64,000 nt of DNA from Syntrophaceae bacterium CG2_30_58_14 (GCA_001873745.1 MNZQ01000116.1:308-64307); one strand, 5' to 3'. Shown: positions 34,157 to 63,981, counted from the first letter of the stretch. A program made the numbers and translations. The notes: a model not told the origin generated them from the letters alone.

Positions 34157-34232
34157 TGGAGCTGGCGATGGGACTTGAACCCGCAACCTGCTGATTACAA
34201 ATCAGCTGCTCTACCGATTGAGCTACGCCAGC
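34157..34232 (-). tRNA. tRNA-Thr (anticodon TGT)
   Basis: GCTGGCGTAGCTCAATCGGTAGAGCAGCTGATTTGTAATCAGCAGGTTGCGGGTTCAAGTCCCATCGCCAGCTCCA. Confidence 0.93.
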
Positions 34233-34324
34233 ACTCCTAAACATTGAATATCAAAGATAATCTTCGCAAAAAAGAGCCGCGCCGCCACCCAGGCGGAGGA
34301 ATGCCCCCCTCTGTGAAACAAGGG

Positions 34325-34353
34325 ACACTAATTTTTATGTCTTCGTTTGTCAA
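34325..34353 (-). promoter_or_regulatory. Candidate strong sigma-70 promoter of the tRNA/rpmG/secE-nusG cluster (TTGACA-N17-TAGTGT with an A/T-rich UP-like tract)
   Basis: Minus strand reads AAAAAATAATAAAAAAAATC-TTGACA (34353-34348), 17 nt, then TAGTGT (34330-34325); about 85 nt upstream of the first tRNA. Confidence 0.5.
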
Positions 34354-34486
34354 GATTTTTTTTATTATTTTTTCAGGTCTTGCCCTTGTTAACGTCCGGA
34401 CACGCACCCTCACTTTGGGTTCTCGTCAGACAGGCCAATCGGTTTCCATAAAAAAATGGCCAGGTATCGCCGCGACTCCGCAAACG

Positions 34487-34921
34487 CTACCCGTCAAACT
34501 TCGGCAGCGGCATCTTGATGAACGGAACGCCCTCTTCCCTCAAGGTTTCTTCTTCGCTCCCGGTGGCGGTCCCGCGGATGTTTCTGCTCTCTTCCTCTCC
34601 ATGATGGATCCGGAGGGCGACTTCCGCAAACTTGTCGCCCACGTTATCGAAGTTCTTATGGATGTGCTCCTGCAACGCACGGATGAGTTTCAGCGGCGGC
34701 TCGCCGTTCTGCGTCGTTGTCGCAGCGGAACGGTTGTCCCGTCCCCTGACCACGGCAGAAGAAGGGATCAACGCCGTCTCCGTATTTCCGCAGACGGGAC
34801 ACGCGATGAGTTTTTGCAGCCGCTGTTCATCGAAGGCGCCCCTGTCCTTGAACCAACCTTCAAATTTATGGCCGTCACGGCATTGGAGATCGTAGATGAT
34901 CACGCCTCTTCTCCTCGTCAT
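34487..34921 (-). CDS. DUF1178 family protein (N-terminal zinc ribbon)
   Basis: IIYDLQCRDGHKFEGWF...CPVCGNTE...NVGDKFAEVALRIHHGEEESRNIRGTATGSEEETLREEGVPF matches my recollection of the DUF1178 pattern. An alternative GTG start at 34903 would give MIIYDLQC. Confidence 0.7.
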   Translation of the reverse strand: MTRRRGVIIYDLQCRDGHKFEGWFKDRGAFDEQRLQKLIACPVCGNTETALIPSSAVVRGRDNRSAATTTQNGEPPLKLIRALQEHIHKNFDNVGDKFAEVALRIHHGEEESRNIRGTATGSEEETLREEGVPFIKMPLPKFDG

Positions 34922-35005
34922 TGACCTCTATGGTATTTTTATCATGATGATCCTAAAAAATAATGGTGGACAATCGACTCCAAATTGGTTATGGAGGGCG
35001 CGTGT

Positions 35006-35082
35006 CGGGATGTGGCCCAGCTTGGTAGGGCACTGCGTTCGGGACGCAGGAGTCGCGCGTTCAAATCGCGCCATCCCGACCA
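35006..35082 (+). tRNA. tRNA-Pro (anticodon CGG)
   Basis: CGGGATGTGGCCCAGCTTGGTAGGGCACTGCGTTCGGGACGCAGGAGTCGCGCGTTCAAATCGCGCCATCCCGACCA. Confidence 0.93.
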
Positions 35083-46199: not shown

Positions 46200-46320
46200 T
46201 CCGTACTGTTTTCGCGCTATCCGTCGCCTCTCCCGCCCTTCCAACCGGAGCTGCCGTCTTTGTAGAAACGCCATCCCGCCTCGTCTTATCAATAACCGGT
46301 TGTTATCTATTATATGATTA

Positions 46321-46346
46321 TTATTCGTTTGACTTATTCGTTTGAC
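46321..46346 (+). repeat. 13-nt exact tandem direct repeat TTATTCGTTTGAC x2 (plus a partial third, TTATATTAC) upstream of phnW
   Basis: Read directly in the AT-rich 246-nt spacer between rimO and phnW. Confidence 0.85.
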
Positions 46347-46396
46347 TTATATTACGGAAGGTATAGATAGGATTCCATGATCACTATGGGAATGAT

Positions 46397-46418
46397 TTCA
46401 TTGGATCTTTCCAATGAA
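46397..46418 (+). promoter_or_regulatory. Inverted repeat TTCATTGG-N6-CCAATGAA in the phnW 5' region (operator or RNA hairpin)
   Basis: Perfect 8-bp arms, 27 nt upstream of the phnW ATG. Confidence 0.4.
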
Positions 46419-46444
46419 TCCATTGATAAGACAAGGAGGTTGAT

Positions 46445-47563
46445 ATGGAGATAAAAAATTTGCCGGACAATCCCTATCTGTTGCTGACGCCGGGCCCTCT
46501 ATCGACAACCAAGACCGTGAAGGCCGCGATGCTCCGGGACTGGTGCACCTGGGATGACGATTACAAAACGATCGTCCAGGAGGTGCGGGACAAGCTGGTA
46601 CAACTCGCGACGAACAAGACGGACCGATACACCTCTGTCCTCATGCAGGGCAGCGGCACCTTTTCGGTGGAAGCGACCATCAGCACGGCCGTTCCCGAAA
46701 ACGGCAAGCTGCTGGTCCTTCCCAACGGCGCCTACGGGGACCGGATCGTGCAGATCGCAAAGACCCTGAAGATACCGGTGGTCGAAAACGACAGCGGGGA
46801 ACTGGATCCGCCCGATCTGGAAAAGTTAGAGACAACGCTGAAGGCGGACCGCGCGATCACCCATGTCGCCGTCGTTCATTCCGAAACGACCACCGGCATG
46901 CTGAACCCCATCGCCGAGATCGGGAAGATCGTGAAGAGACACGGCAAGATCTTCATCGTGGATGCGATGAGCAGCTTCGGCGGCATCCCGATGGACATCG
47001 AGGCGCTCGACATCGACTTCATCGTCAGCAGCGCGAACAAGTGCATCCAGGGGGTCCCCGGGTTCGGTTTCATCATCGCCGACCGGAAGCGGCTGATGAC
47101 CTGCAAGGGCCGGGCGCGCTCGCTCTCCCTGGATCTCTACGATCAGTGGAACACGATGGAAAACGACAAGGGGAAGTGGCGCTACACCTCGCCGACCCAC
47201 GTCGTCCGGGCCTTTGATCAGGCGCTGAAGGAACTGGACGAGGAAGGCGGCGTCGCGAAGCGGGCGGAGCGTTACCGGGCCAACCACCGGACCCTGGTGG
47301 ACGGCATGCGAGGGCTCGGCTTCCGCACCCTCCTCCCGGACGCCTTCCAGGGACACTTCATCACCTCCTTCTACAGTCCGGAAAGCGAGCAGTATGACTT
47401 CCGAACGTTCTACAACAAACTGAAGACCCGGGGATTCGTGATCTATCCGGGCAAGGTTTCCAAGGCCAGCGCATTTAGAATCGGCAACATCGGCGACGTT
47501 TACCCGACCGACATGGAGAGGCTGGTCAAAACTATTGCAGCATCGATGTTCTGGCAAGGGTAA
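46445..47563 (+). CDS. phnW: 2-aminoethylphosphonate:pyruvate aminotransferase
   Basis: [29 protein letters not shown]...[13 protein letters not shown]...[15 protein letters not shown]...RYTSPTHVV closely tracks enterobacterial PhnW along its whole length (from memory). Confidence 0.88.
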
Positions 47564-47617
47564 AACGGTTATCAAAAAAATTTCTGAACAGATCCTGTCA
47601 CATTACGGGAGGATGAG

Positions 47618-48730
47618 ATGATTGCGGGAATTTTGAAAGAGATCAAGATTGAGGAAAACCGCGTCTCCATGACGCCGGCCGGCGTCGAGATCCTGAAGGG
47701 GCATGGCCACACGCTCCTCGTTGAAAAGGGCGCGGGTTCGGGCAGCGGTTTCGAGGACAGGGCCTACGTCGCCGCCGGCGCCGAGATCGTCAAGACCGCA
47801 AAGGAGATCTACGGCCGTTCCGACATGGTCATGCATGTGAAAGAACCGATGCCTTCCGAGTACGAATGGATCCGCAAGAATCAGATCGTCTTCACCTATT
47901 TCCATCTGGCCGCGAATGAGGCGCTGACGAGGGCGATGATCGAAACCCAATCCATCGCTATCGCCTACGAGACGATCCAGAAGGCGGACGGATCGCTCCC
48001 CCTGCTCATCCCGATGAGCGAGGTCGCGGGCCGGATGGCAATCCAGGAGGCCGCCAAGTACCTCGAGATGGAATACGGCGGGGAGGGCGTTCTTCTCGGC
48101 GGCGTCCCGGGCGTCGAACCGGCGACGGTCCTGGTGATCGGCGCCGGAACCGTCGGCACGCACGCCGCAAAGATGGCCTGCGGCCTGGGCGCCAGGGTCT
48201 ATGTCATCGACTCCTGTTTGTCGCGACTCCGCTATCTCTCCGACGTCATGCCGAAGAACTGCTTCCTCCTGATCTCCTCTCCGGAGACCATCCGCAGGCT
48301 GATCCGGGAGGCGGACGCGGTGATCGGCTCCGTCCTGATCCCCGGCGCCAAGGCGCCGAAACTCGTCACGCGCGACATGCTGAAACTCATGAAAAAAGGA
48401 TCGGTCCTGGTGGACGTGGCTATCGACCAAGGCGGCTGTTTTGAAACCTCCAGGGCGACGACGCACAAAGCGCCGATCTACACGATCGACGGGATCATCC
48501 ATTACTGTGTGGCAAACATGCCAGGCGCCGTCGCGAAAACCTCCACGCTGGCCCTGACGAACGCCACCCTCCCCTATGCGGTCGAGATCGCAAACAAGGG
48601 CTGGAAGAGGGCAATGAAGGAAAACCCGGAGATCAAAAAGGGCGCCAATGTGATCCAGGGTCAGGTCACCTTCCAGGGCGTGGCCGACGCCTTCGGTCTG
48701 AAATTCGCCGATATCGAAAAGTTTCTGTAG
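47618..48730 (+). CDS. ald: Alanine dehydrogenase
   Basis: MIAGILKEIKIEENRVSMTPAGVEILKGHGHTLLVEKGAGSGSGF...VIGAGTVGTHAA (NAD fold). Confidence 0.93.
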   Translation: MIAGILKEIKIEENRVSMTPAGVEILKGHGHTLLVEKGAGSGSGFEDRAYVAAGAEIVKTAKEIYGRSDMVMHVKEPMPSEYEWIRKNQIVFTYFHLAANEALTRAMIETQSIAIAYETIQKADGSLPLLIPMSEVAGRMAIQEAAKYLEMEYGGEGVLLGGVPGVEPATVLVIGAGTVGTHAAKMACGLGARVYVIDSCLSRLRYLSDVMPKNCFLLISSPETIRRLIREADAVIGSVLIPGAKAPKLVTRDMLKLMKKGSVLVDVAIDQGGCFETSRATTHKAPIYTIDGIIHYCVANMPGAVAKTSTLALTNATLPYAVEIANKGWKRAMKENPEIKKGANVIQGQVTFQGVADAFGLKFADIEKFL

Positions 48731-48752
48731 TTTCAATCAGATGAAACCCTGC

Positions 48753-48792
48753 GGACCGGTTCCGGGACTCTTGGGGAACCGGTCCTTTTTTT
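48753..48792 (+). terminator. Rho-independent terminator after ald
   Basis: GGACCGGTTCC-N11-GGAACCGGTCC perfect 11-bp stem, followed by TTTTTTT. Confidence 0.88.
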
Positions 48793-48807
48793 GGAACAAA
48801 AATCCCG

Positions 48808-49773
48808 TCACAATCCATAAACCCTTTTGAGATGCTCCCTGATCTGTTGCAGGTGCTTTTGCTGCTCCCGATACAGACGGTGTGCGTCCTCCAGGGTCAC
48901 CCGTTCGAACAGAACGATATTCCCGGGCATGGCCTGGGCCACGTTGGGGAGATCCGCTGTAATCACGGTCGCGATTTTTGCGTACCCCCCCGAGGTCTGC
49001 TCGACGAGGAGAATGATGGGCTGCCCGTCGGCGGGGACCTGAACGTTTCCGGGCATCGTGGGCTCCGTCACGATACTCTCGGGTGATTCCCCATCGCGAT
49101 GGACGGCGGGGCCCCGGAGCCGGCAGCCCATTCGGTCGGCCTGCTGGGTCACTTCATAGGAGGCGCCGAAAAAGGCGTCGATGCCTTCCCGGAAGGCGTC
49201 GTCCTGTGGACCGGGGACGGCCCTGAGCGCGATCTCTCGTGCATATCGTGGAATCCATTCGTCGGGGAGCTCACGGGGGCGAGTCAGGAGACTGCCCGCT
49301 CTCCGGTGCAGGATGTCGCCTTTGATCAATCCGCGTCCCTGAACACCGCCGATTTTCGCCCGCACGAAGGTGGAGCGGCTCCCCATCATCAGGGGAACAT
49401 CGATGCCTCCCGTGACGGCCAGGTAGGCCCGGCAGCCGGATGCCGCCCGGGGAATCCGGATGACTTCGCCGGGGTTCGCTCTAACCGTCCGCCATGCCCG
49501 GATGGGGGCCTGGTTGATGGTCATCCCCATGTCGGCGCCGGTCAATGCGATGTCGGCCGGTGTGAGAACCTCGATGGTGGGACCCATCACGGTGATCTCC
49601 AGGACGGCGGCATCTTCGGGATTTCCCACGAGCAGATTCGCAACCCGGCAGGCAAAGGGATCGAGGGCCCCGGAGAGGGGAACGCCCCGGTCCAGGAAGG
49701 CCAGACGCCCGAGATCCTGTACGGTGGTCATGGGACCGGGGTTCCGGACGGCGAAGAGTTCCATCAGGACCAC
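48808..49773 (-). CDS. pxpC: 5-oxoprolinase subunit C (PxpC; KipA / allophanate hydrolase subunit-2 family)
   Basis: 321 aa; GPMTTVQDLGRLAFLDRGVPLSGALD...GGYAKIATV; overlaps pxpB by 10 nt. Confidence 0.85.
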   Translation of the reverse strand: MVLMELFAVRNPGPMTTVQDLGRLAFLDRGVPLSGALDPFACRVANLLVGNPEDAAVLEITVMGPTIEVLTPADIALTGADMGMTINQAPIRAWRTVRANPGEVIRIPRAASGCRAYLAVTGGIDVPLMMGSRSTFVRAKIGGVQGRGLIKGDILHRRAGSLLTRPRELPDEWIPRYAREIALRAVPGPQDDAFREGIDAFFGASYEVTQQADRMGCRLRGPAVHRDGESPESIVTEPTMPGNVQVPADGQPIILLVEQTSGGYAKIATVITADLPNVAQAMPGNIVLFERVTLEDAHRLYREQQKHLQQIREHLKRVYGL

Positions 49774-50471
49774 TCCTTTTCGCGCAATCGACGGAATTCG
49801 GCCTCGGCGATGGGTACGAACCGGATACGGTCTCCCGCCTCGTACAGAAAGGGGTTTTCCCGCGCGGGGGCGAAGAGTCGCAGCGGCGTCCGCCCGATGA
49901 TCTGCCAGCCGCCGGGACTGTCGACGGGATACATGCCCGTCTGGGATTCCGCGACTCCCACGGAGCCCGCCGGGAGGTTCGTCCGCGGCGTTTTTCTGCG
50001 CGGCATCTGCAACCGGCGATCCAGTCCGCCCAGGTAGCAGAATCCCGGCGTGAAGCCGATCATGTAGATGGGATAATCAACGGCGATATGGATGACGACG
50101 ATCTCATCCTCCCGCAGGCCGGTGTGTTCCGCCACGACGCCGATGTCGGGACCGAACTCGCCGCCGTAGCAGACCGGGATCGGAACGACTTTCGCCTTTG
50201 CAATCTCCGCCGCACGGGAATCCGCTTCCAGGGCATGGAGGATCTCCGCCAGCCTTCCGGGTGTCGTCGCCAGGGGATCATAGATAATGGAGAGGGAGCG
50301 GTAGGCCGGGACAACCGCCTCGACGCCGGCCGGAAGGTTTCTCTTCAGGAGCGTCGTCATGGCCCGCACCTTTTCGTTGATGACGGGGTCGATTCCGTCG
50401 CCGTATTCCACCAGGAGCGCGCGGTCGCCGCTCAACCGGAATCGGGCCTGTTTGTAAAGTATCGCTGCCAT
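49764..50471 (-). CDS. pxpB: 5-oxoprolinase subunit B (PxpB; KipI / allophanate hydrolase subunit-1 family)
   Basis: 235 aa; GDRALLVEYGDGIDPVINEKV...YMIGFTPGFCYLGGLD...GGWQIIGRTP. Confidence 0.85.
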   Translation of the reverse strand: MAAILYKQARFRLSGDRALLVEYGDGIDPVINEKVRAMTTLLKRNLPAGVEAVVPAYRSLSIIYDPLATTPGRLAEILHALEADSRAAEIAKAKVVPIPVCYGGEFGPDIGVVAEHTGLREDEIVVIHIAVDYPIYMIGFTPGFCYLGGLDRRLQMPRRKTPRTNLPAGSVGVAESQTGMYPVDSPGGWQIIGRTPLRLFAPARENPFLYEAGDRIRFVPIAEAEFRRLREKEWS

Positions 50472-50501
50472 GGCTTGGGAAATACCGTTATGGAGGGGAT
50501 G

Positions 50502-51278
50502 TCAAGCCGATGCGCCCAGCGGGACGATGCGAAACCCCTCGGCCTCCAGCGCCTGCCGGATCGTCCTCACATGGTCAACGGCCGACGGATTGTCGCCGTG
50601 CACGCAGAGCGTATGCACCTCCATCTCCAGGCGCGTGCCGTCCGTGGCGATCACCCTGCCCTCTTTGGCCATCCGGAGTGCCTGCTCGGCGGCCCGCTTC
50701 GGGTCCGTGATCACGGCCCCGGGAAGTTTCCGTGGCGCCAGCTTTCCATCGGGCGTATAGGTCCGGTCGGGGAAGGCTTCGAAGACGACACGGATCCCCG
50801 CCGCGTCGGCGATCTTCTGCGCAAGGCCGGCCTGAGCCCCGCCGAGCGTCACCCAGAGGAGTCCCGGATCGACGGCAGCAATGGCCTCGGCCACGGCCCT
50901 GGACAAGGGCTCATTTCCCACGCACATGTTGTACAGGCTGCCGTGGGGCTTCACATGCTGCAGCTTCACGCCGTGGAGGGCGCAGAAGCCGCGCAGGGCC
51001 GCGATCTGGTAGATCACATCATCGCGCACCTCGTCCGGAGTGCAGTCCATGTTCCGCCGCCCGAATCCCGCGAGGTCGGGGTATCCCGGATGGGCCCCAA
51101 CGCCTACGCCGTTTTCTTTGGCAAGCTTCACCGTCCGGTTCATGACCCGGGGATCGCCGGCGTGGAACCCGCAGGCGATGTTGGCCGAGCTGATGTACCG
51201 GATCACCTCGCCGTCCATGCCGATCGTGTAGGCGCCGAAGCCCTCCCCCATGTCGCAGTTGATGTCGATCCTATTCAT
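50502..51278 (-). CDS. pxpA: 5-oxoprolinase subunit A (PxpA; LamB/YcsF family)
   Basis: MNRIDINCDMGEGFGAYTIGMD...SSANIACGFHAGDP...VKPHGSLYN, from ATG 51278-51276. Confidence 0.88.
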   Translation of the reverse strand: MNRIDINCDMGEGFGAYTIGMDGEVIRYISSANIACGFHAGDPRVMNRTVKLAKENGVGVGAHPGYPDLAGFGRRNMDCTPDEVRDDVIYQIAALRGFCALHGVKLQHVKPHGSLYNMCVGNEPLSRAVAEAIAAVDPGLLWVTLGGAQAGLAQKIADAAGIRVVFEAFPDRTYTPDGKLAPRKLPGAVITDPKRAAEQALRMAKEGRVIATDGTRLEMEVHTLCVHGDNPSAVDHVRTIRQALEAEGFRIVPLGASA

Positions 51279-51521
51279 CGGTTCATCTCCTCGTACGGTA
51301 TGTCGAATCATTATGCCATTATTTAGCGATCATCCTGCTCGGAAGGAATCACTGGGCGCTGGAGAGAGAGGAATCAGCCTGGCCCAACTTTTCCTGAAAG
51401 CCTTTTCGTTTCCCTGAGGTTCGAGGAGGAGCGCAGCGTATGAGTGAAAGCGAGATTTCTTGTAAAATAAGTTTGGGCAACAGGCCCCTGACCCTTGATT
51501 TTTGAACCCTTTCCTTGAATG

Positions 51522-52226
51522 TTAAAGTCCCAGGAAGGCCTTTTTGATGTCTTCTGCATTGAGGAGTTCTTTGCCTGTCCCTTCCTGGATTGTCCTGCCC
51601 GTCTGAAGAACATATCCGCGGTCGCATATGTCAAGGGATTCAAAGACATTCTGTTCCACAAGGAGTATAGTTTTCCCGATTGTCCTCAGCTTTGCAACGG
51701 CTTCGAACATTTCATCTACCAGTTTCGGCATGAGCCCCAGAGAAGGTTCGTCAAGCATGAGAAGTTTCGGGTTTGACATGAGACCCCTCCCGATGGCAAG
51801 CATCTGCTGCTCGCCGCCGCTTAAGGTGCCACTCAACTGTGAGCGTCTCTCTTTCAACCGTGGAAAGAGGCTGTATATGAAATCGAGATTTTTCTTTGTT
51901 TCTTCGGAATTATTTAAAATGTATGCACCAAGCTCAAGATTTTCTTCCACCGTGAGAGGCCCGAATATGAGACGCGCTTCAGGGATATAGGTAATGCCAA
52001 GCTTGACAATGTCCGGTGTTGACAGTTTGTGTATATCTTTGCCATCGAACTGTATTGACCCTTTTGTCGGATGAAGGGCCCCTGCGATGGTTTTGAGGAG
52101 AGTCGATTTCCCGGCGCCGTTTGAACCTACCACCGTAACAAGCTCACCCTGCCCGACGTGGAGTGAAACGTTGTGGACAACAGGTATGCCGCTGTAGCGG
52201 ACTTCGATCTCAGTGACTCTTAGCAT
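51522..52226 (-). CDS. livF: Branched-chain-amino-acid-type ABC transporter ATP-binding protein (LivF-like)
   Basis: GSNGAGKSTLLKTIAG, LSGGEQQMLAIGRGL; 234 aa. Confidence 0.88.
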   Translation of the reverse strand: MLRVTEIEVRYSGIPVVHNVSLHVGQGELVTVVGSNGAGKSTLLKTIAGALHPTKGSIQFDGKDIHKLSTPDIVKLGITYIPEARLIFGPLTVEENLELGAYILNNSEETKKNLDFIYSLFPRLKERRSQLSGTLSGGEQQMLAIGRGLMSNPKLLMLDEPSLGLMPKLVDEMFEAVAKLRTIGKTILLVEQNVFESLDICDRGYVLQTGRTIQEGTGKELLNAEDIKKAFLGL

Positions 52227-52941
52227 ATTTCTCTCCCAGGTATGCCTTGATCACATCTTCGTTTTTGACAATTTCACCGGGCAGACCCTCCGCAATCTTT
52301 TCGCCATAATCAAGTACAATGACACGATGGGAAACAGACATAACCATCTCCATAATATGCTCGATAAGAATGAGTGTTACCCCTTTTTCGGCGTTGAGTC
52401 TCCTCAGAAGCAATACCAGTTCATCCGTCTCCGTGCGGTTTAAGCCTGATGCGACTTCGTCAAGCATAAGCAATTCAGGTTTTGTCGCCAATGTCCTGGC
52501 AAGCCCTACCTTTCTCTGCATTGCAATGGGTAATTCATTCAGATGATATTCTTTTACGCTTTCCAGTCCAAGAAAGTTGAGCACCTCAGAGGCCTCTGAC
52601 TGTGCCGTATGACGGTCATCGGTCCTGCAGAATGCACCTACCATGACATTTTCGATGACGCTCATGCCAGTTGTTACCGTCATAACCTGAAATGTCCTGC
52701 CGATACCCGCCCTGTTCGTGTCAAAGGGTCTCAATCCCGTTATGTCCTTTTCTTTAAAAATCACCTTTCCTGAATCGGGTTTATAATAACCGACAATGCA
52801 GTTGAAGAGGGTTGTTTTCCCGGCGCCATTGGGGCCGATAAGACCAATGATCTCACCCTGTTCGATCTGGAACGAGACGTTGTTGTTTGCCACAAGTCCG
52901 CCAAAATTTTTTACGATGTTCGATATTTCAAGAAATGCCAC
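52210..52941 (-). CDS. livG: Branched-chain-amino-acid-type ABC transporter ATP-binding protein (LivG-like)
   Basis: KNFGGLVANNNVSF, GPNGAGKTTLFNCI; 243 aa. Confidence 0.88.
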   Translation of the reverse strand: MAFLEISNIVKNFGGLVANNNVSFQIEQGEIIGLIGPNGAGKTTLFNCIVGYYKPDSGKVIFKEKDITGLRPFDTNRAGIGRTFQVMTVTTGMSVIENVMVGAFCRTDDRHTAQSEASEVLNFLGLESVKEYHLNELPIAMQRKVGLARTLATKPELLMLDEVASGLNRTETDELVLLLRRLNAEKGVTLILIEHIMEMVMSVSHRVIVLDYGEKIAEGLPGEIVKNEDVIKAYLGEKYAKSH

Positions 52942-52943
52942 AA

Positions 52944-53942
52944 TCAGCTCCCTTTTCTTCTGAACTGTTCGATGATGCCCCAGATACCCCTCGGTTGATA
53001 GGCAGAGACCACCATGATAAGCATTGCATAGATCATGAAATCAAGGCCGATCAACCCTCCATGGCCGCCAAGCCAGCTTCCGAGGAAACGGTCAAGGGGA
53101 ACGAGAAAGGCAGCGCCAATAGTAGGCCCCCAGAGGGAACCTGCCCCTCCGAGCATTGCCATGAGGGCAATTTTAATAGAAAGGTCTAAGTCCATGACAG
53201 AAACAGGGTCTATGTAGAGGTTGTAAACGGCCATAAACCCACCGCCAACGGCAACAAAGGCTGAGGCAATGGAGTATGCCTTTATCTTGCACCAGCGTGT
53301 ATCTATGCCAAGGCTTTCAGCGGCATCCTCGTCATCTTTTATCATCCTTAACTGATAACCCAGTTTTGATCTGCGGAACCAGTTCATGTAGAAGATGGCC
53401 ACATAAAAAAGTACCATAATGAAGTAGTAGTAATATGTGTCGGATTTGAACTGCATGTAGAGAAAATCAGGATGGTCATGTATCGGAAGCTCTATCCCTT
53501 TGGCGGCGCCTACCAGTTTCCAGTTTGCAAAAATATCCTGCAACACGAGGGATGTAGCGATCGTGGCAATAGCAAAGTAATGCCCTTTAAGACGGAATAA
53601 GGGATAGCCGATCATGAAGGAATAACCAACGGCAAGCAGAATCCCCATGGGCATGGATACCCAGAACGGGATTTTCCACCACACCATGGTAAGGGCCACA
53701 GTATATGCGCCGATTCCCACATATTGGGCCTTGCCGAGCTCTACCTGTCCACCATATCCGCCTACGGTATTCCATCCCATTCCAAAGAGGGAGAACAGGA
53801 GGAATTGAATCATGACCGCCTTTACGAATGACCCCGCACCAAGCCAGGGAAAGAGGAGCAGAAAGATGGAAAAGATGGTAAAACCGACCTGCTCGGCCCT
53901 CGAAAAGTCTCTGAAATCTAAGGCGTCCTTTAGTTTTTCCAT
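52944..53942 (-). CDS. livM: ABC transporter permease (LivM-like)
   Basis: 332-aa polytopic protein in the LivH/LivM family context. Confidence 0.85.
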   Translation of the reverse strand: MEKLKDALDFRDFSRAEQVGFTIFSIFLLLFPWLGAGSFVKAVMIQFLLFSLFGMGWNTVGGYGGQVELGKAQYVGIGAYTVALTMVWWKIPFWVSMPMGILLAVGYSFMIGYPLFRLKGHYFAIATIATSLVLQDIFANWKLVGAAKGIELPIHDHPDFLYMQFKSDTYYYYFIMVLFYVAIFYMNWFRRSKLGYQLRMIKDDEDAAESLGIDTRWCKIKAYSIASAFVAVGGGFMAVYNLYIDPVSVMDLDLSIKIALMAMLGGAGSLWGPTIGAAFLVPLDRFLGSWLGGHGGLIGLDFMIYAMLIMVVSAYQPRGIWGIIEQFRRKGS

Positions 53943-54817
53943 CCAAATAACCCCTGAGGTCTGAAAACGACAATGATAAAATAAGCAAGATAGACTATGG
54001 TAAATTTAAAATGAGGACCGAGGAAATCCGAGTTCACGAGAGAACCGAAGACGGGGAAAACCATTTCGAGAATGCCTACAAGTAAACCGGCGAAAAAGAC
54101 CCCTTTAATGCTCCCGAACCCGCCCAGAGCGACACAGGCAAAAGCGATCATGACAAAGAGAATACCTATCGTGGGGTAGATGTAATAGAAATTCGCCAGC
54201 AAACCCCCGGCAATACCAACTGTACCACCGCCTATAGCCCATGCAATGGCATTCATTTTGTCTGTCTTGATGCCCATATAAGAAGCGGCTTCTTTGTTTA
54301 TCGATGTTGCCTGGAGGGCCTTTCCTGTTTTTGTTTTATTGAGAAAATAGTATACGAATGCGAAGGCAAACAGACTGAGTATACCCGCAGCAAGTTTTGT
54401 CCAGTCAAAGATGAAGGGACCGATGGAGAGGGACTTTCCAATCAGGAGACCCTTCTGGATGATCCGATAATCTATTCCAAAGAGGAACTGTGCAAGGTAT
54501 CGAAGAAAGAGCATGAGACCGAAGGTCCCGAAGAGCTGAGCGATTGCAGGGCCACGGAGGAGATACCTGATCAGGCTGTAATAGGACGCTATGCCGAGCA
54601 GAACCCCTACAAGGGCAGCTACAGGCAGTGTAAGAAGGGGATCGATGTCAAGGAGGAGACTCGTCCAGTACGTGGTGTACATACCGATCATAAGGAATTC
54701 GCCATGGGCGAAGTTGACTATGTTCATAACGCCGAAAATAATGTTCAACCCAAGGGCAACAAGGGCAAAAAGAAGCCCCATCAGTATTCCCTGTAATAAT
54801 GCATCAATTAAAGCCAT
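53930..54817 (-). CDS. livH: ABC transporter permease (LivH-like)
   Basis: MALIDALLQGILMGLLFALVALGLNIIFGVMNIVNFAHGEF... Confidence 0.87.
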   Translation of the reverse strand: MALIDALLQGILMGLLFALVALGLNIIFGVMNIVNFAHGEFLMIGMYTTYWTSLLLDIDPLLTLPVAALVGVLLGIASYYSLIRYLLRGPAIAQLFGTFGLMLFLRYLAQFLFGIDYRIIQKGLLIGKSLSIGPFIFDWTKLAAGILSLFAFAFVYYFLNKTKTGKALQATSINKEAASYMGIKTDKMNAIAWAIGGGTVGIAGGLLANFYYIYPTIGILFVMIAFACVALGGFGSIKGVFFAGLLVGILEMVFPVFGSLVNSDFLGPHFKFTIVYLAYFIIVVFRPQGLFGWKN

Positions 54818-54842
54818 GGAGTATTGTTTCCTTAAAAAATGA

Positions 54843-54914
54843 TCAGTTATCAGCGGTCAGCAGTCAGCAACTTCCTAATGCTGAATGCTTGAATGCTGAC
54901 CGCTGAATGCTTAC
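54843..54914. repeat. Heptamer array forming a long hairpin: 4 x TCAGNNN, an 8-nt loop, then 5 inverted (N)NGCTGA-type units
   Basis: TCAGTTA TCAGCGG TCAGCAG TCAGCAA cttcctaa TGCTGAA TGCTTGAA TGCTGAC CGCTGAA TGCTTAC. TCAGCGGTCAGCA (54850-62) pairs perfectly with TGCTGACCGCTGA (54894-906). Confidence 0.85.
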
Positions 54915-54918
54915 AACG

Positions 54919-56220
54919 TTATTTCCATCCCGGGAATGGATAGATCATATTGGCAGTGGCAAGCTCAAAGGGGTAAATGATCTCGAGATCGATCATGCCT
55001 TCTTTGGTCTTCTGGTACTGCCCGATAAGACCTCTGCCGAGAATGTTCTGGCCGGTGGCATCGAATTTAACGCCTGCCCATGGCATAACCAGATCATTAG
55101 CGGGGATATTGATCTCATTGCATGCCTTCTGGATAGCCTTGGGGTCAGTTGAACCGGCTTTATTCAGAACGTATGCCCATGTCTGGACCCCTACGACTGA
55201 CCGGGCAGTGGCTCCTGTAAGGTCATCGCCATATTTTTTCTTATAAAGGGCATTGACCTGACCTGCAACCTTTTTTACCTTTGCAATCTTTGCGATAAAG
55301 ACTGTTCTCGTCAGAACACCGTTTGTGTCTGTGCCAAGTGTTTTAACAAAATCAGCCATTTCAAAGCCGGCATCCTGTCCCCAGAAAAAGTTCGTTGATG
55401 CCTTCATACCCTTCAAGGTTCTGATCATGAGGAGCGAGTCAGAGAGGTAAGATGCAAAAAGCATAACATCCGGTTTTACAGAAACAAGGGCCTTTGCTTC
55501 GGAGGTGAGGTCGGGCGAGTTTGCATTGTAGAGTATCCTTTTCGTTATATTGAAACCGTACTCTTTTGCAAATCCCTCTATTGATTTTGCTACACTTGAA
55601 CCCCATTCGGTATTTTCACAGGCATAGGCAACGTTCTTAAGCTGATCTTTAGGAAAGGCCTTAACACCCTTTACCTTTCCTTCTGTCAACCCCTTGAGAA
55701 GCTCAAAAAGGTCTTTGTTAAAAATATCATCATGGGGTGTTGTACGCCAGAACCATTTCAATCCTCTTTTTGTAAGTTCGGGTGATGTCGATGAATCATT
55801 GATCATGGGGATTCCATGGCGCTCGGCCACAGCACTGACGGTCTTTGTAACTGAGCTATGGTAGGCGCCCATTAACCCGACAACTTTGTCGTCAAGAATA
55901 AGTCTTTTTGCAAGGTCTGCTCCACGGTCAGGCTCGCCCCGATGGTCTGCAAAGATCAGTTTGATTTTAGCGCCACCTAAATTCGGTATCCCACCCCACT
56001 GTGCCATGGGTATATCAACGCCAGGAGTTTTATTATTGATAATCTCTGCGGTCAGCTCTGCTGCCCTCTGAAGGTCTCTCCCGATTGTAGCTGCTGCCCC
56101 TGAGAGCGGATAGAGAACACCGATCCTAATCTCTTTTTCCTGCGCAAAAAGCGGAGGAAAAAGAAAAAGAAGAGACAAGAACACAACGATGAAAAAAAGA
56201 ACTGTTTTCCGGTATTTCAT
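54919..56220 (-). CDS. ABC transporter substrate-binding protein (type-1 periplasmic binding fold, Leu/Ile/Val-binding family)
   Basis: MKYRKTVLFFIVVFLSLLFLFPPLFAQEKEIRIGVLYPLSGAAA... signal peptide. ATG at 56220 is preceded by AGGAGG; the ORF-track start at 56262 adds 14 aa. Confidence 0.85.
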   Translation of the reverse strand: MKYRKTVLFFIVVFLSLLFLFPPLFAQEKEIRIGVLYPLSGAAATIGRDLQRAAELTAEIINNKTPGVDIPMAQWGGIPNLGGAKIKLIFADHRGEPDRGADLAKRLILDDKVVGLMGAYHSSVTKTVSAVAERHGIPMINDSSTSPELTKRGLKWFWRTTPHDDIFNKDLFELLKGLTEGKVKGVKAFPKDQLKNVAYACENTEWGSSVAKSIEGFAKEYGFNITKRILYNANSPDLTSEAKALVSVKPDVMLFASYLSDSLLMIRTLKGMKASTNFFWGQDAGFEMADFVKTLGTDTNGVLTRTVFIAKIAKVKKVAGQVNALYKKKYGDDLTGATARSVVGVQTWAYVLNKAGSTDPKAIQKACNEINIPANDLVMPWAGVKFDATGQNILGRGLIGQYQKTKEGMIDLEIIYPFELATANMIYPFPGWK

Positions 56221-56624
56221 TGTACTACCTCCTGTAGTGTTTTGATCATATTTTCGCTTCATTGTTCCCTCCCGATTCTTGTATTATGATTTTCGATGCA
56301 TCCATACGTATCTCATGCCGAAATCATGGCTTTCCGCCTCTCTTTCCAACCACCCCCTTCCATAGATTACACGGCACTGCTCAAAGGAACATATAACGGC
56401 TCAGAATCCAGGATTCAAAATTCAGCAGAATGGTAACCCTGTAAATCACCAGCAACTTGCTGGCTTATTCCGACAAATGCGCCCTTATGCCATGCCCTCT
56501 AATCCCGAAAATCCTTAGCGGTCTTCCTATGAATCTCCATCCTGAATTCAAGCCCCTGGCTTCTGAGTGGCACAGCAATTTCATCCTTAAATCCCACGGG
56601 GCGCCCCGGGTTATTTAAAAAAAG

Positions 56625-57419
56625 TCAGGAAATGGCCATTTCTTCTATTTTTATATCTGTAATGAACATATGACAGGGTTTATGGGTAATCATGAACGGA
56701 ACCTTTGATTTCATTGCTGCCAGTTGCGGAGTAACACCGCAACCCCAAAAAACAGGCACATCCCCCCTGTCGATTACGGGAGGTTCGCCAAAGTCAACCT
56801 TTTCAAGATGCGTGATTCCGATTGGCTCCCCATTGCCAATATGGACGGGCGCGCCATGCGCTTTAGGAAATCTCGAGGTTATCTGAACCGTCCGTGCAAC
56901 AAGATGGCCAGGAATCGGTCTCATAGTGACTACCATGGGCCCCCAAAAAACCCCGGCTGACCGGCACATGACTGAACTGATATATACGCCTGGATCTTTT
57001 TGCTGGAGATAATTCTTTACGGGAACCCCTCCCCGAACCAGGGCTTCTTCAAAGGTATAACTGCAACCGATTAAATAAGTTACAAGATCGTCACGCCATA
57101 AATTGGTGATCTCTGTTCTTTCCTCGACCAGTTTTGAATCCTTGAAGATGCAATATTTCGGGATATCGGTGCGGATGTCCGCATCGGGAGCTGCTTCCTG
57201 TACAATAGGGTTTCCCGGATCAAGGATTTCAATGATCGGGCAAGGCTGGGGATTCCTCAAACAAAAGATGGTAAAATCGAGAGCGAATTCCCTCGGGAGG
57301 ATAACGAGATTGGCTTGGACATAGCCGGGACAGGCCCCACTGGTAGATTTTTGCCATTTGCCCTGTCTAATTTGATCGCGGAACTTCCCGGGATCTTGTT
57401 CTTGTCTTTCGTTACACAT
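56625..57419 (-). CDS. DUF1445 / UPF0317 putative hydro-lyase (D-glutamate cyclase family)
   Basis: 264 aa; FRDQIRQGKWQKSTSGACPGYVQANLVILPREFALDFTIFCLRNPQPCPII is the family signature as I recall it. Confidence 0.75.
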   Translation of the reverse strand: MCNERQEQDPGKFRDQIRQGKWQKSTSGACPGYVQANLVILPREFALDFTIFCLRNPQPCPIIEILDPGNPIVQEAAPDADIRTDIPKYCIFKDSKLVEERTEITNLWRDDLVTYLIGCSYTFEEALVRGGVPVKNYLQQKDPGVYISSVMCRSAGVFWGPMVVTMRPIPGHLVARTVQITSRFPKAHGAPVHIGNGEPIGITHLEKVDFGEPPVIDRGDVPVFWGCGVTPQLAAMKSKVPFMITHKPCHMFITDIKIEEMAIS

Positions 57420-57442
57420 AATAGCACCTTACCTGAATCCGT

Positions 57443-57458
57443 GGCATAAAATGTGCCT
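57443..57458 (-). promoter_or_regulatory. Candidate sigma-54 (-24/-12) promoter for the DUF1445-ABC unit
   Basis: Minus strand aGGCACattttaTGCc has GG and GC at the canonical spacing (consensus TGGCAC-N5-TTGC), about 24 nt upstream of the DUF1445 ATG. No enhancer-binding protein gene is present in the window. Confidence 0.3.
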
Positions 57459-57675
57459 AAAGCCTCGTAACTATTCAGCCCCTCCATTAATTTATAATTT
57501 ATTTACCTCTCACCCTCCCCCCTAAAAAAGTCAAGGGATTTTTTTAAATTTTACTGATTGAATCCACGGCTTTATTTTGCGCGGTCCGGTTTTCCTGTTT
57601 TTCAGCACCGCTTCTTGGACGACTTCGCAAAAAGTCGAGATCACCCCCCCGAGATTTCCTCCCCGATTTTTTCTC

Positions 57676-60600
57676 TTAAATCCTCCGGCAGCCGGGGCCG
57701 GTCAGGCTGCTTCGCCCCCCGGTCCCGGGGGTGACCTGGATCTGCGTGCCGATGCGCTCCTTGAGCGCCGGGACGTGCGAGATGACGCCGATCAGCTTGC
57801 CTTCCTGGTGCAGTCCCGCCAGCGTCGAAAGCGCCGTTTCGAGGGTCTCGTCGTCGAGGGTTCCGAACCCTTCATCGAGGAAGAGAGAATCCACGCGCAC
57901 ATTCCGGCTCGCCATCTGCGAGAGGCCGAGCGCCAGAGCCAGGCTGACGATGAAGCTTTCGCCGCCGGAGAGATTCTTCGTGGAACGGATCTCGCCCGCC
58001 TGATAGTTGTCGATGACGTTCAGTTCCAGCGGTTGCAACGGGTCGCGGATGAGCATGTAGCGGTCCGTCATCTTCTTTAGCTGGAGGTTGGCATGCACCG
58101 TCATCCTCTCGAAGGTCAGCCCCTGGGCAAAGTTCCGGAATTTCTTGCCGTCAGCGGAGCCAATGAGCAGATGCAGGTCGTCCCAACGGGCGCACTCCTT
58201 TTTCCGGGCGTCCAGGGTCCGGAGGCGATCCTGCTGCTTTTCCTTCAATTTCTCATTTTCACCCAGACTGTTTGTGATTCCGCCGATATCGACCCGGATC
58301 TGTCTTAAGCTTGAATCACAGGCGCCGATCGTTTCCCGAAGCGTCTCGACGGGCTGATCCGTCAAGCGTCTCTCCCGTTCGGCGGCCAGCGCCTCCGATC
58401 GGTCCCTCCGGCGGGCGTCCAGTTCCGTTTTCTCCTTGACCAGGGCCTTTTCCCGCGCCGCGAGACTCTCCCGCGCCTCTTCGGTCAGGCAGGCGGACCG
58501 ATAGCCGGCCTCGTCCTCGAACCCCGCCTTGATGATCCGCTCCGTTAGGTTCGCCTCCGCCTGCGCCAGTTCCCCCGCCCGCTTTCCCGTCTTTTCCTGC
58601 AACAGCGCGATTTTCTCCTTCAGGGCGCCGATCTCTTTTTCCATTCGCCCGTACTCTTCGCGCGCCTTTTCAAAAACCTTTCCCGCCCGCTCCACAGCCT
58701 CCGCCAGCCACTTTTCCTCCTGGTCGGCGTTCCTCTCCCCGAAGAGTTCCCGGCGGGAGGCGCTAAGGGATTGAACCTGCATGAGCAGGTCGTCGCGATC
58801 CTTGCGCCTTGCGGCGAGATCCCTTTCGAGGCTCGAAAGCAGCGCGTTGTCCTTGTCCAGCGCGGCCTTCAGATCGCCGATCCCCTTCTCCGCGGCGGTT
58901 TTTTCATCCTGCCTTGTCTGCCACGCCTCTCTGCGCCCGGTGAGCTCCCGCAACAGGGCGTCGATTCCGGTTACGGGAATCTGCGTGATCCCGAAGGGTT
59001 CCACTCCCTTGAGCGCAGCCGTGCGGGCCTTTCGAGCCTCCTCCCCCAGGATTTCCTGCTCCCGGATCAACCGTTCATACTCCCGACCGGCCGTCTCCCG
59101 TTGATGCCGCGCCTCCTGCAAGGCCTTGTCCGACTTCTCGGATCCCGTCCTCAACTTCTCCAGGGCCGTTTGCGCCGCCTTCTCTCTTTTGCTTTTCTCT
59201 TCCGCAACGGAAACAATGCCGGAAGTTTCGGCCATTTTCAACCGGACATCGGCAAGAGCCGCGCATATGGGGACAGATTTAAAATCTGTCCCCATATGCG
59301 CGATACCCAGCTTCAGCAGCGCTTCACCACACGCCTTTTCGTCCGCATCCCGTGCGGCCCTTTTCTCCCCCATCTCTTTTTCCGCATGCCCGATCTCCGC
59401 CGCTGTTTTAACCTGCTCGGTTTCCAGTCTTCCCAGCGTCTCGGAGGTCTTTTTGTATTCGGCCTTTCTCTTTTTTAGCCCCGCTTCCGCCCTGTTCAAT
59501 TCGGGGAGATTGCCCTTCGCGTAAGGATGATCGGTGGCGCCGCACAGGGGGCACGGCCTGCCGTCCTCCAGCCGCTTCCGTTCCTCCTCGAGGTCGCGGA
59601 TCCGTCCAAGGAGAGCGACCTCCGTTTCGAGGGTTCCGATTCCCTTTTCCAGGACCGCTTTTTGCCCCGAGCAGGACTGGATCTCACCCGAGATCTTCTG
59701 ATGACCGTTATGGAAGGCTTCAAGGACCGTTTTCAGGCCTTCCAGCGCCCGACCCGTCTTGTCGATCCGGTCGATCATTTCGCCCGCTTGAATCAGAAGA
59801 CGCTCGCGCTCCTTCAGCGCATCCACCCGATCGCGCCACCGGCCGATGTCAGATCCTTTGAGGATGGCCGCGAGCTCAACGGTTAGACGCCGAAGTTCCG
59901 TCTGCCCCTTCTCGAATTCCCGGCGGGATTTCTCATGGTCGGTTTCGAGCTTGCCGCAGGTTAAACCGGCCGACGCCTTTTTCCCGTCTGCCGCGGCAAC
60001 CGCTTTCTTCGCCTTGATCTGCTTCGCCTCAGAGTCGCGAAGCGACTCGAATTCCCTTGCGATTACGGCGAGGTTGGTCAAAAGCGCGGCATCGGCGGCG
60101 TGTCCAGCCAGGTAGTCCCGGATCGCTTTTAGGTCGCCCTGCGCCTTTTTCAGCGCCCGTTCGAGATGTTCGATGTTGCTTTTAAATCCCCTCCCCTGCC
60201 GCTCGCCATCCCCGATCGCCTTGACCTTCTCTGCGACCTGTTTTTTCTGCTCCCCCAGCCTGGCATCGAGCTCGCGCACCTTCTTGAGGAGCTCCGCTTC
60301 GACGACCTGCCGGGAGCGCGCCTCGGTCAAACCGGCTTCCGCGGCCTGTTTCCGATTCAGCGCAGCGGCGCATGCCTTCTCCTTTTCGGGCCGTGTGGCG
60401 GCGGCGCCGGCGAGCTCCCCGGTTTCACTCCCCTGCTGAATCCGCAGCGCGGCCACCCCCCGGTAATCGCCTTCCAGACCGAGGGCCTTGCGGGATTTCG
60501 CCAATCGGATCGATTCCGGCGCAAAGGCAAGCCTGCGCTCCTCGAAATCCAGCAGCAGCCCGTCCAGTTCCGTGATCTCCCTCTCCAGGGCGGCCACCCG

Positions 60601-62853: not shown

Positions 62854-63981
62854 ATGAAGAAAATTGCACAGGAGACTTCCGTACTTAGACGTTCATTTCT
62901 GAAGAAGGCCGGCGCGGGCATCGCCGCAGGCGCGGGCCTCGCTGCCGGTATGAGCTTCGCGGCGCCTGCGGTTCATGCCCAGCCAACGTTGCGCTGGCGC
63001 CTCGCTTCCAGCTTCCCCAAGTCGCTGGATGCGCTGATCGGCCCCGCCGAGGCGTTCGCCAAGATGGTGAGCGCGATGTCCGGCGGCAAGTTCACGATCA
63101 CGGTCCATCCGGCCGGCGAACTTGTCCCCGCCTTCGGCGTGCTTGACGCGGTGCAGAACGCCACTATCGAATGCTGCCAGACCGCCCCCTACTATTTCTT
63201 CGGCAAGGACGACACCTTCGCGCTGGCAACGGCCATCCCCTTCGGCCTCAACTCGCGCCAGATGACGGCTTGGCTGTTCGAGGGCAACGGTCTGAAGCTG
63301 TTGCGCGAGTTCATGAGGAACTACAACATCATCGACTTTCCGATGGGCAACACCGGCGCCCAGATGGGCGGCTGGTACCGCAAGGAGATCAAGTCGCTTG
63401 CCGACTTGAAGGGGCTCAAGATGCGCACCGCCGGGATCGCCGGAAAGGTGCAGGAACGGCTTGGTGTGCAGACGGTAAGCATGCCCGGCGGGGAGGTCTA
63501 TACATCGCTCGAGAAGGGGACGATCGACGCTGTCGAGTGGGTCGGACCCTACGACGACCTGAAACTGGGCTTCTACAAGGTGGCGCCCAACTACTACTAT
63601 CCCGGCTGGTGGGAGGGCTGCGCAAATTGCGAACTCTACGTCAACATCAAGGCCTATGAGGCGCTGCCCGCCGAGTACAAGGCGATGATCGAGGCGGCGT
63701 CGGCGCGTGCGCACGTGCTGATGCAGGCCATATACGACGCCAAGAACCCGATCGCGCTGAAGACATTGGTGGCCGGCGGCGCCAAGCTGCATCGCTTCCC
63801 GAAGGACGTCATGGACGCCGCCTTCAAGGAGGCCATGGCTCTGTACAGCGAGCTCTCCGCAAAGAATCCCCGCTGGAAAAAGGTGTATGAGGACTACAGC
63901 AAGTTCCGCGCCGACGAGAACATGTGGTTCCGCTTCGCCGAGGCCGGCTTCGATGAATTCATGCACGCGCAGAGACTCTAA
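62854..63981 (+). CDS. TRAP transporter substrate-binding protein (DctP family) with a twin-arginine-type signal peptide
   Basis: MKKIAQETSVLRRSFLKKAGAGIAAGAGLAAGMSFAAPAVHAQ, followed by a DctP-like mature domain (375 aa). Confidence 0.85.
   Translation: MKKIAQETSVLRRSFLKKAGAGIAAGAGLAAGMSFAAPAVHAQPTLRWRLASSFPKSLDALIGPAEAFAKMVSAMSGGKFTITVHPAGELVPAFGVLDAVQNATIECCQTAPYYFFGKDDTFALATAIPFGLNSRQMTAWLFEGNGLKLLREFMRNYNIIDFPMGNTGAQMGGWYRKEIKSLADLKGLKMRTAGIAGKVQERLGVQTVSMPGGEVYTSLEKGTIDAVEWVGPYDDLKLGFYKVAPNYYYPGWWEGCANCELYVNIKAYEALPAEYKAMIEAASARAHVLMQAIYDAKNPIALKTLVAGGAKLHRFPKDVMDAAFKEAMALYSELSAKNPRWKKVYEDYSKFRADENMWFRFAEAGFDEFMHAQRL

Follow-up and report, generated by a model that had tools for sequence, protein, structure and literature searches.

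Why should six adjacent genes in a high-GC bacterial genome have the composition of a low-GC one, and what might they be doing beside the genes of a 5-oxoprolinase? The question is raised by a stretch of 64,000 nucleotides (nt) from Syntrophaceae bacterium CG2_30_58_14 (GCA_001873745.1 MNZQ01000116.1:308-64307), here called the window, in whose numbering positions are given unless another locus is named. Between pxpA and sbcC it contains an islet of approximately 6.4 kb (51279-57675), comprising a DUF1445 gene and five genes of an ATP-binding cassette (ABC) transporter. An original prediction, made from the sequence alone, had described this islet as carrying a Liv-type transporter and as relatively recently acquired by horizontal transfer. 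We compared it with other loci and contigs, labelled by L-numbers, and consider it likely that a foreign, non-mobile cassette was acquired here, in the part of a variable slot that lies next to sbcC, and that it would feed 5-oxoproline to the PxpABC enzyme encoded beside it.

Composition and ancestry of the islet

As one expects of a genomic island, the islet deviates from its host in GC content, in GC at third codon positions (GC3) and in tetranucleotide usage. Its GC content is 46.9%, against 58.0% in the remainder of the window. In windows of 1 kb, GC stays at 0.452-0.481 over 51.5-57.5 kb, with both flanks at 0.59-0.66, and the lowest value outside the islet in the whole 64 kb is 0.511, so that stretches of 40-45%, which would weaken the case if they were common, are not a general property of this DNA. 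GC3 is 0.46-0.57 in the six islet genes, 0.75-0.76 in the neighbouring pxpC and sbcC and about 0.61-0.84 in the other correctly framed open reading frames (ORFs). In tetranucleotide usage the islet correlates with the remaining sequence of the window at r = 0.37. The sixteen 6-kb windows lying fully outside it give r = 0.91-0.97, and the three that straddle it 0.94, 0.79 and 0.92. At a resolution of 200 nt the GC shifts fall at approximately 51200-51400 and 57500-57700, i.e. in the two intergenic gaps that border the six genes, where the prediction had placed them; the five 60-nt hand counts behind it (26, 19, 19, 40 and 34 G+C) also proved exact. Outside the islet the window is itself two-tiered, with GC of 0.51-0.58 over about 4.5-37 kb, including rpoB/rpoC and ribosomal protein genes, and 0.60-0.66 at 38-51 kb and 57.6-64 kb.

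Support for horizontal acquisition goes beyond GC content. The ABC module (51501-56243, 4.7 kb) is colinear at 88.8% nt identity with L094, a 77-kb metagenome contig of 45% GC, and has 76% nt identity to three contigs of a 42%-GC Syntrophorhabdaceae metagenome-assembled genome (MAG). At the amino acid (aa) level the identity to L094 is 94% for the binding protein, 93% and 95% for the LivH-like and LivM-like permeases, and 93% and 97% for the LivG-like and LivF-like ATPases. In contrast, the window's pxpA, pxpB and pxpC are only 49, 43 and 32% identical (aa) to the pxpABC of L094, and resemble instead those of L011, a 62%-GC Syntrophales MAG (85, 79 and 74% aa; 78.5% nt). Given this contrast, the neighbouring ABC module and pxpABC have very different histories.

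The same five ABC genes directly follow pxpABC in L094, L095-L097 and L132, where the gene order is DctP, pxpABC, binding protein, two permeases, two ATPases and a radical-SAM gene, and the copies in L094, L095 (42% GC) and L132 match the GC and GC3 of their surrounding genomes. L094 and L095 are 76% identical and have at least 14 kb of common gene order around the module, at genome-typical GC. Synonymous divergence (dS) of the window's module is 0.46 to L094, and is saturated to L095 (>3) and to L130, another Syntrophaceae genome. Given this dS pattern and the identity between L094 and L095, the window copy nests with L094 inside the low-GC group. The oligonucleotide signature of the islet likewise correlates with the flanks of the module in L094 at r = 0.81, the corresponding value for the host being 0.25. 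Among eight named homologues of the L094 HrcA protein, six belong to Syntrophorhabdaceae or Syntrophorhabdus (64-68% identity), the other two being labelled 'Proteobacteria bacterium' and 'Syntrophobacterales bacterium'. Judged by these similarities, the donor lineage is Syntrophorhabdaceae-like, without a named close relative. The 4.7-kb core of binding protein, two permeases and two ATPases would thus have come from a low-GC lineage related to Syntrophorhabdaceae, and the recipient would have been a Syntrophaceae/Syntrophales genome of about 58% GC. Mean GC3 is about 0.52 in the window's ABC genes and about 0.53 in L094, i.e. there is no shift toward the host, and this absence of amelioration suggests that the true donor was closer than L094. 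The ABC module is under purifying selection (dN/dS of about 0.06). In L094 (6293-7318) and L095 (5632-6657) we also observed a lone TRAP DctP binding-protein gene upstream of pxpABC, with the ABC system downstream, such that binding proteins of two transporter classes flank the same enzyme genes.

The BLAST searches called for by the prediction thus yielded a low-GC, Syntrophorhabdaceae-like match for the ABC module, but for the DUF1445 gene the nearest match is a different one: L091, at 80% identity in both aa and nt. In this contig of 56% GC, GC3 of the DUF1445 gene is 0.64, and behind the gene lies another ABC system of the HAAT family, only 24-43% identical to the window's. L094 is without a DUF1445 gene. 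By nearest relatives, therefore, the islet would be composite. One may then consider that acquisition took place at least twice, with a Syntrophorhabdaceae-like donor for the ABC module and another lineage as the source of the DUF1445 gene, each module being inserted independently beside pxpABC, with selection favouring the clustering of genes of the same pathway. The 368 nt between the two blocks of homology (56244-56611), which match nothing, would be in keeping with such a history. However, the signatures of the DUF1445 gene (r = 0.58 to the L094 flanks) and of the adjoining 404-nt spacer (r = 0.55 to these donor-like flanks, against 0.22 to the host) are as close to L094 as those of equal-sized pieces of the ABC module (0.42-0.69 in the case of the DUF1445 gene), and the DUF1445 gene, at r = 0.44 to the host, lies outside the host range of 0.62-0.86. 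Moreover, L133, a 47%-GC contig, already unites within 5 kb pxpABC, this ABC type at 74-88% identity and a DUF1445 gene that belongs to the same subclade (72%), and L130 has the order ABC system, GNAT gene, DUF1445. Separate acquisitions thus strike us as possible but doubtful. In view of the shared signature and of the linkage in L133 and L130, a single unsampled low-GC donor with a DUF1445 gene beside its ABC module is plausible; the DUF1445 gene and the spacers probably came from the same donor pool as the ABC module, possibly in one piece, although in no sampled genome did we find DUF1445, spacer and ABC module joined as they are here.

The slot between ftsK and sbcC

If the islet was acquired, one would expect relatives to lack it at this position. 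With sbcC as the anchor, 32 loci (51-84% aa identity) were recovered from metagenomes, and none of them (0/32) has DUF1445, this ABC system or pxpABC downstream of sbcC. The islet is thus absent at the same locus in close relatives, and a finding that would have told against acquisition, the same six genes at host-like composition in this place, was not made. In the nearest relative, L115, nt identity is 83.9% over sbcD-sbcC and 85.1% over the rimO-like gene and ftsK. Between these two blocks blastn homology stops at 46231 and restarts at 57618, 58 nt beyond the stop codon of sbcC and just after a terminator-like hairpin. The window here carries phnW, an alanine dehydrogenase gene, pxpCBA and the islet, whereas L115 carries two MocA oxidoreductase genes, a DeoR regulator, a UroD-like gene and DctQM. 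On this comparison the whole sbcC-rimO interval, pxpABC included, is a variable slot, and the right edge of the islet is a synteny breakpoint. The slot of L115 (9597-16165 of that locus) shows a GC dip of its own, to 0.45 at 14000-14900 just before the TRAP genes, and may have received foreign DNA independently.

The prediction had asked whether pxpA is directly adjacent to sbcC elsewhere. Such adjacency is not the ancestral state, as it is seen nowhere and the whole slot differs in L115; genomes scanned from pxpA and metagenomes scanned from sbcC alike revealed no locus with sbcC adjoining pxpA, and none with pxpABC in the slot without the islet. As for timing, dS between the window and the core genes of L115 is 0.41-0.51, similar to that between the ABC module and L094, which is compatible with acquisition after the window and L115 lineages split. 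The description 'relatively recent' is consequently upheld only in part: GC3 has not ameliorated, but dS to L094, the nearest sampled relative of the donor, is about as large as that between the host and L115, and the islet is present in every sampled strain.

How the DNA was inserted was said in the prediction not to be evident from any integrase, tRNA or clear border repeats, and this is still so. We found no integrase or transposase, every ORF in 46.2-57.7 kb being a metabolic or transport gene, and the slot has no room for an integrase; the nearest tRNA is at 35 kb, and direct or inverted repeats at the borders amount to short matches of 74-85%, at chance level. The features of a mobile island are thus missing. 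The donor pxpABC (32-49% aa) is also too divergent to have guided homologous recombination. The location in a slot with conserved sbcCD and rimO/ftsK on its two sides suggests that the cluster was assembled in a related strain and then entered by cassette turnover, through recombination in these flanks; illegitimate recombination would be an alternative route.

We infer the direction of transfer from several of these observations taken together. A module native to the Syntrophales and exported to low-GC organisms could be suggested by L130 (53% GC), in which the family sits at host-like composition beside the core genes rplU-rpmA-obg. Yet the window copy mismatches the composition of its own genome while the copies in L094, L095 and L132 match theirs, it is nearer to L094 than L094 is to L095 (saturated) and is nested in low-GC diversity, and L115 and the 31 other relatives are without the module after sbcC; export is therefore very unlikely. 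Still less probable is that the genes are native, with a low GC imposed by protein or expression constraints such as those on hydrophobic permeases. Two of the six do encode membrane proteins rich in AT-encoded residues, and GC1 and GC2 are also somewhat low, but GC3 is low in the soluble proteins too, and in this ABC family it is 0.64-0.73 in L130 and 0.36-0.49 in L095; the composition is thus that of the resident genome rather than a property of the protein family. Nor can 93-97% aa identity to an organism whose pxpABC is only 32-49% identical be vertical. Finally, an assembly or binning chimera with a co-occurring low-GC organism, which the metagenomic source of the genome and the abrupt changes in intergenic gaps might bring to mind, is scarcely credible: ten contigs from ten samples (seven JGI, three ENA) agree with this region at 99.85-100% identity, two of them (L001 and L002) cross both junctions, L004-L007 run from sbcC or the upstream gap into pxpA, and the exact proteins occur in several NCBI MAGs on contigs of up to 77 kb, a recurrence that effectively excludes it.

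Import of 5-oxoproline and the DUF1445 gene

All six islet genes are co-directional, as predicted, and Pfam and NCBIfam confirm their assignment to a DUF1445 protein, a binding protein, two permeases and two ATPases. The last five correspond to an importer of the HAAT family (LIV-type, TC 3.A.1.4), with a Peripla_BP_6 binding protein, two BPD_transp_2 permeases and two ATPases, one of which has a BCA_ABC_TP_C tail; all Pfam matches exceed the gathering scores. 'Liv-type' is thus correct at the level of the family, but probably not for the substrate. Against the NCBIfam Liv equivalogs the binding protein scores 60.6 (cut-off 477), LivH 79.5 (379), LivG 223 (362) and LivF 261 (441), and since the Liv and Urt equivalog scores are all far under their cut-offs, the label 'branched-chain amino-acid transporter' is unsupported; L-pyroglutamate is the likely substrate. 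The binding protein matches PDB entry 8WCH, its one close relative of solved structure, over its full length (residues 30-433, E = 4e-83, 38% identity), the next PDB match being at 2e-13. This entry is SAR11_0655 with L-pyroglutamate, which it binds with a dissociation constant below 5 nM, and SAR11_0655 has been described as belonging to a new ABC transporter class encoded near pxpABC homologues (PMC11485210). The window's protein is closer to SAR11_0655 than to other HAAT binding proteins, and its type is linked to pxpABC in the window, L094-L097, L131, L132 and L133 as in SAR11. It is thus a probable L-pyroglutamate (5-oxoproline) binding protein.

Directly downstream of the islet, on the same strand, are the three adjacent genes of a prokaryotic 5-oxoprolinase (48808-51278), with a host-like 64.5% GC; PxpA scores 358.6 with NCBIfam NF003814 (cut-off 226). 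In L011 and L012, the two closest relatives of this pxpABC, TRAP DctPQM genes lie directly upstream of pxpA, preceded in L011 by a GntR gene, and the gene types seen here recur beside pxpABC in many lineages. Its co-directionality with pxpABC and the recurrence of such linkage elsewhere tie the islet functionally to this flank. Together with the host-composition pxpABC it would form one co-directional cluster of nine genes, perhaps co-transcribed, in which L-pyroglutamate would be caught by the binding protein and taken up through the ABC system, whereupon PxpABC would open the lactam to L-glutamate, spending ATP. The islet is accordingly most likely the source of an ATP-driven, probably high-affinity 5-oxoproline importer for pxpABC.

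The DUF1445 protein belongs to the UPF0317/DUF1445 family over its full length and above the curated cut-offs (PF07286, E = 1e-56, score 190.9 against 25; equivalog NF003969, 365.6 bits against 324), and it matches the UPF0317 structures 3DB9 (6e-82) and 2PIF. Genes of this family lie within 3 kb of pxpA in 15 of 80 diverse pxpA-anchored genomes, and adjoin this ABC type in L130 and L133. By analogy with a mammalian enzyme discussed below, a role on the D-enantiomer branch is a reasonable hypothesis. A bolder proposal, which we regard as unlikely in its entirety, is that DUF1445, the pyroglutamate-type importer and PxpABC together constitute an undescribed pathway salvaging both enantiomers of 5-oxoproline/glutamate in anaerobic syntrophs, with DUF1445 acting as a D-glutamate cyclase or a 5-oxoproline racemase, and with the module as a plug-in for resident pxpABC that spreads between Desulfobacterota classes. 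If so, D-glutamate from peptidoglycan necromass would be an example of a substrate, and DUF1445 would be the missing stereochemical link. In L091 and L092, the loci with the closest DUF1445 homologues, the gene is found within larger catabolic clusters with genes for GntR, glutamate dehydrogenase or pxpABC, 2-oxoacid:ferredoxin oxidoreductase subunits, a DHO_dh/Fer4 protein, CN_hydrolase, DUF2848 and Cupin_7, which hints at a wider pathway of glutamate or lactam degradation around DUF1445.

Several points weigh against an acquired cassette that serves pxpABC, and should be set beside the evidence in its favour. The pre-insertion state, a slot with pxpABC and without the islet, occurs in no relative examined. 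The nearest sampled homologue of the ABC module still differs by 11% in nt, so L094 is not the donor, and its assignment to Syntrophorhabdaceae rests only on gene order shared with a named MAG and on the HrcA identity of 64-68%. The proposed donors are not the only holders of the ABC type, which also occurs at host-like GC in the Syntrophaceae genome L130. The source of the DUF1445 gene is uncertain, as the signature of L091 is host-like (r = 0.90). With only 38% identity to SAR11_0655, the substrate is deduced rather than directly established. Last, a promoter, an operator and a regulator gene were not found, and the gaps of 243 and 404 nt could split the transcripts of the cluster.

Features of the locus and known systems

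Table 1. Features of the islet and of the surrounding slot, in window coordinates.
Feature	Position	Strand	Remarks
tRNA cluster Trp-Thr-Gly-Tyr-Thr (-) and Pro (+)	33447-35082		beside the rpoBC/ribosomal protein region; unrelated to the islet
Variable slot between rimO-like/ftsK and sbcCD	46232-57617		11.4 kb here, a different 6.6 kb in L115
phnW (2-aminoethylphosphonate-pyruvate transaminase), then alanine dehydrogenase	46445-48730	+	TIGR02326, 590 bits; TIGR00518
pxpC	48808-49773	-	Pfam CT_A_B, E = 3e-88
pxpB	49764-50471	-	Pfam CT_C_D, E = 3e-74
pxpA	50502-51278	-	Pfam LamB_YcsF, E = 3e-101
Left junction gap	51279-51521	-	L094 alignment ends at 51501, L011 alignment at 51280
ABC ATPase, LivF-like, 234 aa	51522-52226	-	PF00005
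ABC ATPase, LivG-like, 243 aa	52210-52941	-	PF00005 and PF12399
Permease, LivM/UrtC-like, 332 aa	52944-53942	-	PF02653 (BPD_transp_2)
Permease, LivH/UrtB-like, 295 aa	53930-54817	-	PF02653 (BPD_transp_2)
Hairpin between binding-protein gene and first permease gene	54850-54906	-	17-nt arms, 94% complementary, 23-nt loop
Periplasmic binding protein (Peripla_BP_6), 433 aa, signal peptide	54919-56220	-	PF13458
ORF-free 404-nt spacer, DUF1445 to ABC module	56221-56624	-	
DUF1445 / UPF0317 'putative hydro-lyase' (Pfam D-Glu_cyclase), 264 aa	56625-57419	-	PF07286; GC 47.8%, GC3 0.47
AT-rich orphan region upstream of DUF1445, presumed promoter region	57420-57617	-	without homologue in fetched loci
Right junction, host side: sbcC 3' tail	57618-57675	-	conserved with L115 up to 57618
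Terminator-like hairpin in sbcC 3' tail	57635-57652		terminator scan

The ORF-free spacer of the prediction is exactly 404 nt long if the ATG at 56220 is taken as the start of the binding protein, in agreement with all homologues, and homology of the spacer to L094 is confined to the last 23 nt (56221-56243). In the left gap 51501-51521 is L094-homologous and 51279-51500 is orphan, and on the other side the homology of L091 to the DUF1445 region starts only at 57423. None of the three orphan gaps (57420-57617, 56244-56611 and 51279-51500) has a match by blastn or tblastx in any of the fetched loci. We also considered remnants of genes in the three gaps (a donor pxpC tail, TRAP, GntR or transposase), but tblastx and blastn-short searches against the fetched loci and the window were negative, the sole match being about 20 nt adjoining the binding-protein start. 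Known RNAs or riboswitches were rejected as well: an Rfam scan of the window at gathering thresholds gave only six distant tRNAs, the 404-nt spacer has no Rfam match at E <= 1, and an E-value scan of 51200-57750 gave two chance-level matches, both within genes. A structured RNA in the spacer is likewise not supported by its minimum free energy (z-score -0.66; 401 nt folded, 56224-56624).

The prediction of an own AT-rich promoter region survives as far as base composition goes, since there is an AT-rich gap upstream of DUF1445 (the full gap, 57420-57675, has 43% GC), but it contains no convincing sigma-70 or sigma-54 site. Scans for sigma-70 promoters and terminators gave as many sites as shuffled sequence would. 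Near DUF1445 there is a single promoter-like site, and it overlaps the start codon of the gene; the sigma-54 consensus has 22 matches against 21.9 expected, none usefully placed. A homology search found no PxpR-like or GntR regulator in the 64-kb window, and of homologues of the L011 TRAP and GntR genes there is elsewhere in the window only a weak DctP-like match (62950-63693).

Within the ABC module, the position of the hairpin between the binding-protein gene and the first permease gene is occupied in L094, L095 and L130 by unrelated sequences, each with an inverted or tandem repeat of its own. This suggests a conserved structural role for repeats in this gap, e.g. in transcript processing or stabilisation favouring the binding protein. 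The binding-protein ORF has two in-frame ATGs, each with a Shine-Dalgarno-like motif: that at 56220 gives 433 aa (all homologues and the JGI calls) and that at 56262 gives 447 aa (the ENA calls). The L094 homology sets in between these two starts, at 56243, and the longer form would therefore be lineage-specific. At the other end of the slot, phnW and the alanine dehydrogenase gene are both missing from L115; no phosphonoacetaldehyde hydrolase or dehydrogenase gene adjoins phnW, and the phosphonate pathway looks incomplete at this locus.

As far as known systems are concerned, an integrase-less islet of horizontally transferred genes in a variable slot is an ordinary phenomenon, and a SAR11_0655-type importer and a UPF0317 enzyme are likewise of known kinds. 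What this locus offers is a clean and well-bounded case of a metabolic cluster built from parts of different ancestry, in which a foreign uptake system that has kept its donor composition stands upstream of a host-composition pxpABC, where relatives have TRAP and GntR genes. Like classical genomic islands it has atypical GC and oligonucleotide usage, sharp intergenic borders, a patchy distribution among relatives and a location in a variable slot. Unlike them it is without integrase, transposase, tRNA target or direct repeats, is only 6.4 kb long and is purely metabolic, and 'non-mobile acquired cassette' or 'islet' is the better term.

The closest functional counterpart is the SAR11_0655 transporter of Ca. 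Pelagibacter ubique (8WCH; Clifton et al., Nature 2024, PMC11485210), which is of the same HAAT type, is linked to pxpABC and is matched 70 orders of magnitude better than LivJ/LivK-type proteins. Its host is marine, whereas the lineage studied here is an anaerobic subsurface deltaproteobacterial one, in which the system, with its binding protein only 38% identical, was inserted from outside and has a DUF1445 gene in front of it. The SAR11-type class of L-pyroglutamate transporters would thereby be extended to anaerobic subsurface Syntrophales and Syntrophorhabdaceae, which suggests that pyroglutamate is a traded substrate in these communities, and 'branched-chain amino acid transporter' labels on hundreds of metagenomic proteins would be corrected.

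The cluster also resembles known 5-oxoproline utilisation clusters, where pxpABC is paired with an uptake system: pxpA-ycsG-ycsI-pxpB-pxpC in B. subtilis, pxpR-pxpTABC in C. glutamicum and the TRAP proteins DctP6/DctP7 in Bordetella (PMC13274462, PMC10448178). The B. subtilis operon embeds a DUF1445 gene, ycsI (PMC10448178), as the window has one near pxpABC, and the GntR and TRAP genes upstream of pxpABC in its closest relatives fit the documented 5-oxoproline TRAP systems and clusters with a GntR/PxpR repressor (PMC13274462). In the window, however, the transporter is an ATP-driven HAAT system instead of an NRAMP-like or TRAP one, there is no GntR/PxpR gene in the 64 kb, and the transporter and enzyme genes are of different origin.

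For the DUF1445 protein the comparison is with mammalian DGLUCY (DUF1445 and DUF4392), which converts D-glutamate to 5-oxo-D-proline (Ariyoshi et al. 2017, PMC5339696), a study that leaves open which of the two domains is catalytic. It is after this reaction, demonstrated for the mammalian two-domain enzyme only, that Pfam's D-Glu_cyclase family is named. Bacterial UPF0317 proteins have no assigned reaction in the literature that we consulted, and the PDB entries 3DB9 and 2PIF carry no functional annotation. In the bacterial protein DUF1445 stands by itself and DUF4392 is missing, yet it shares PF07286 with DGLUCY, whose product is the enantiomer of the PxpABC substrate, and this fits the repeated linkage to pxpABC. 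The recurrent association of DUF1445, transporter and pxpABC thus provides a testable lead to the reaction of the bacterial UPF0317 proteins.

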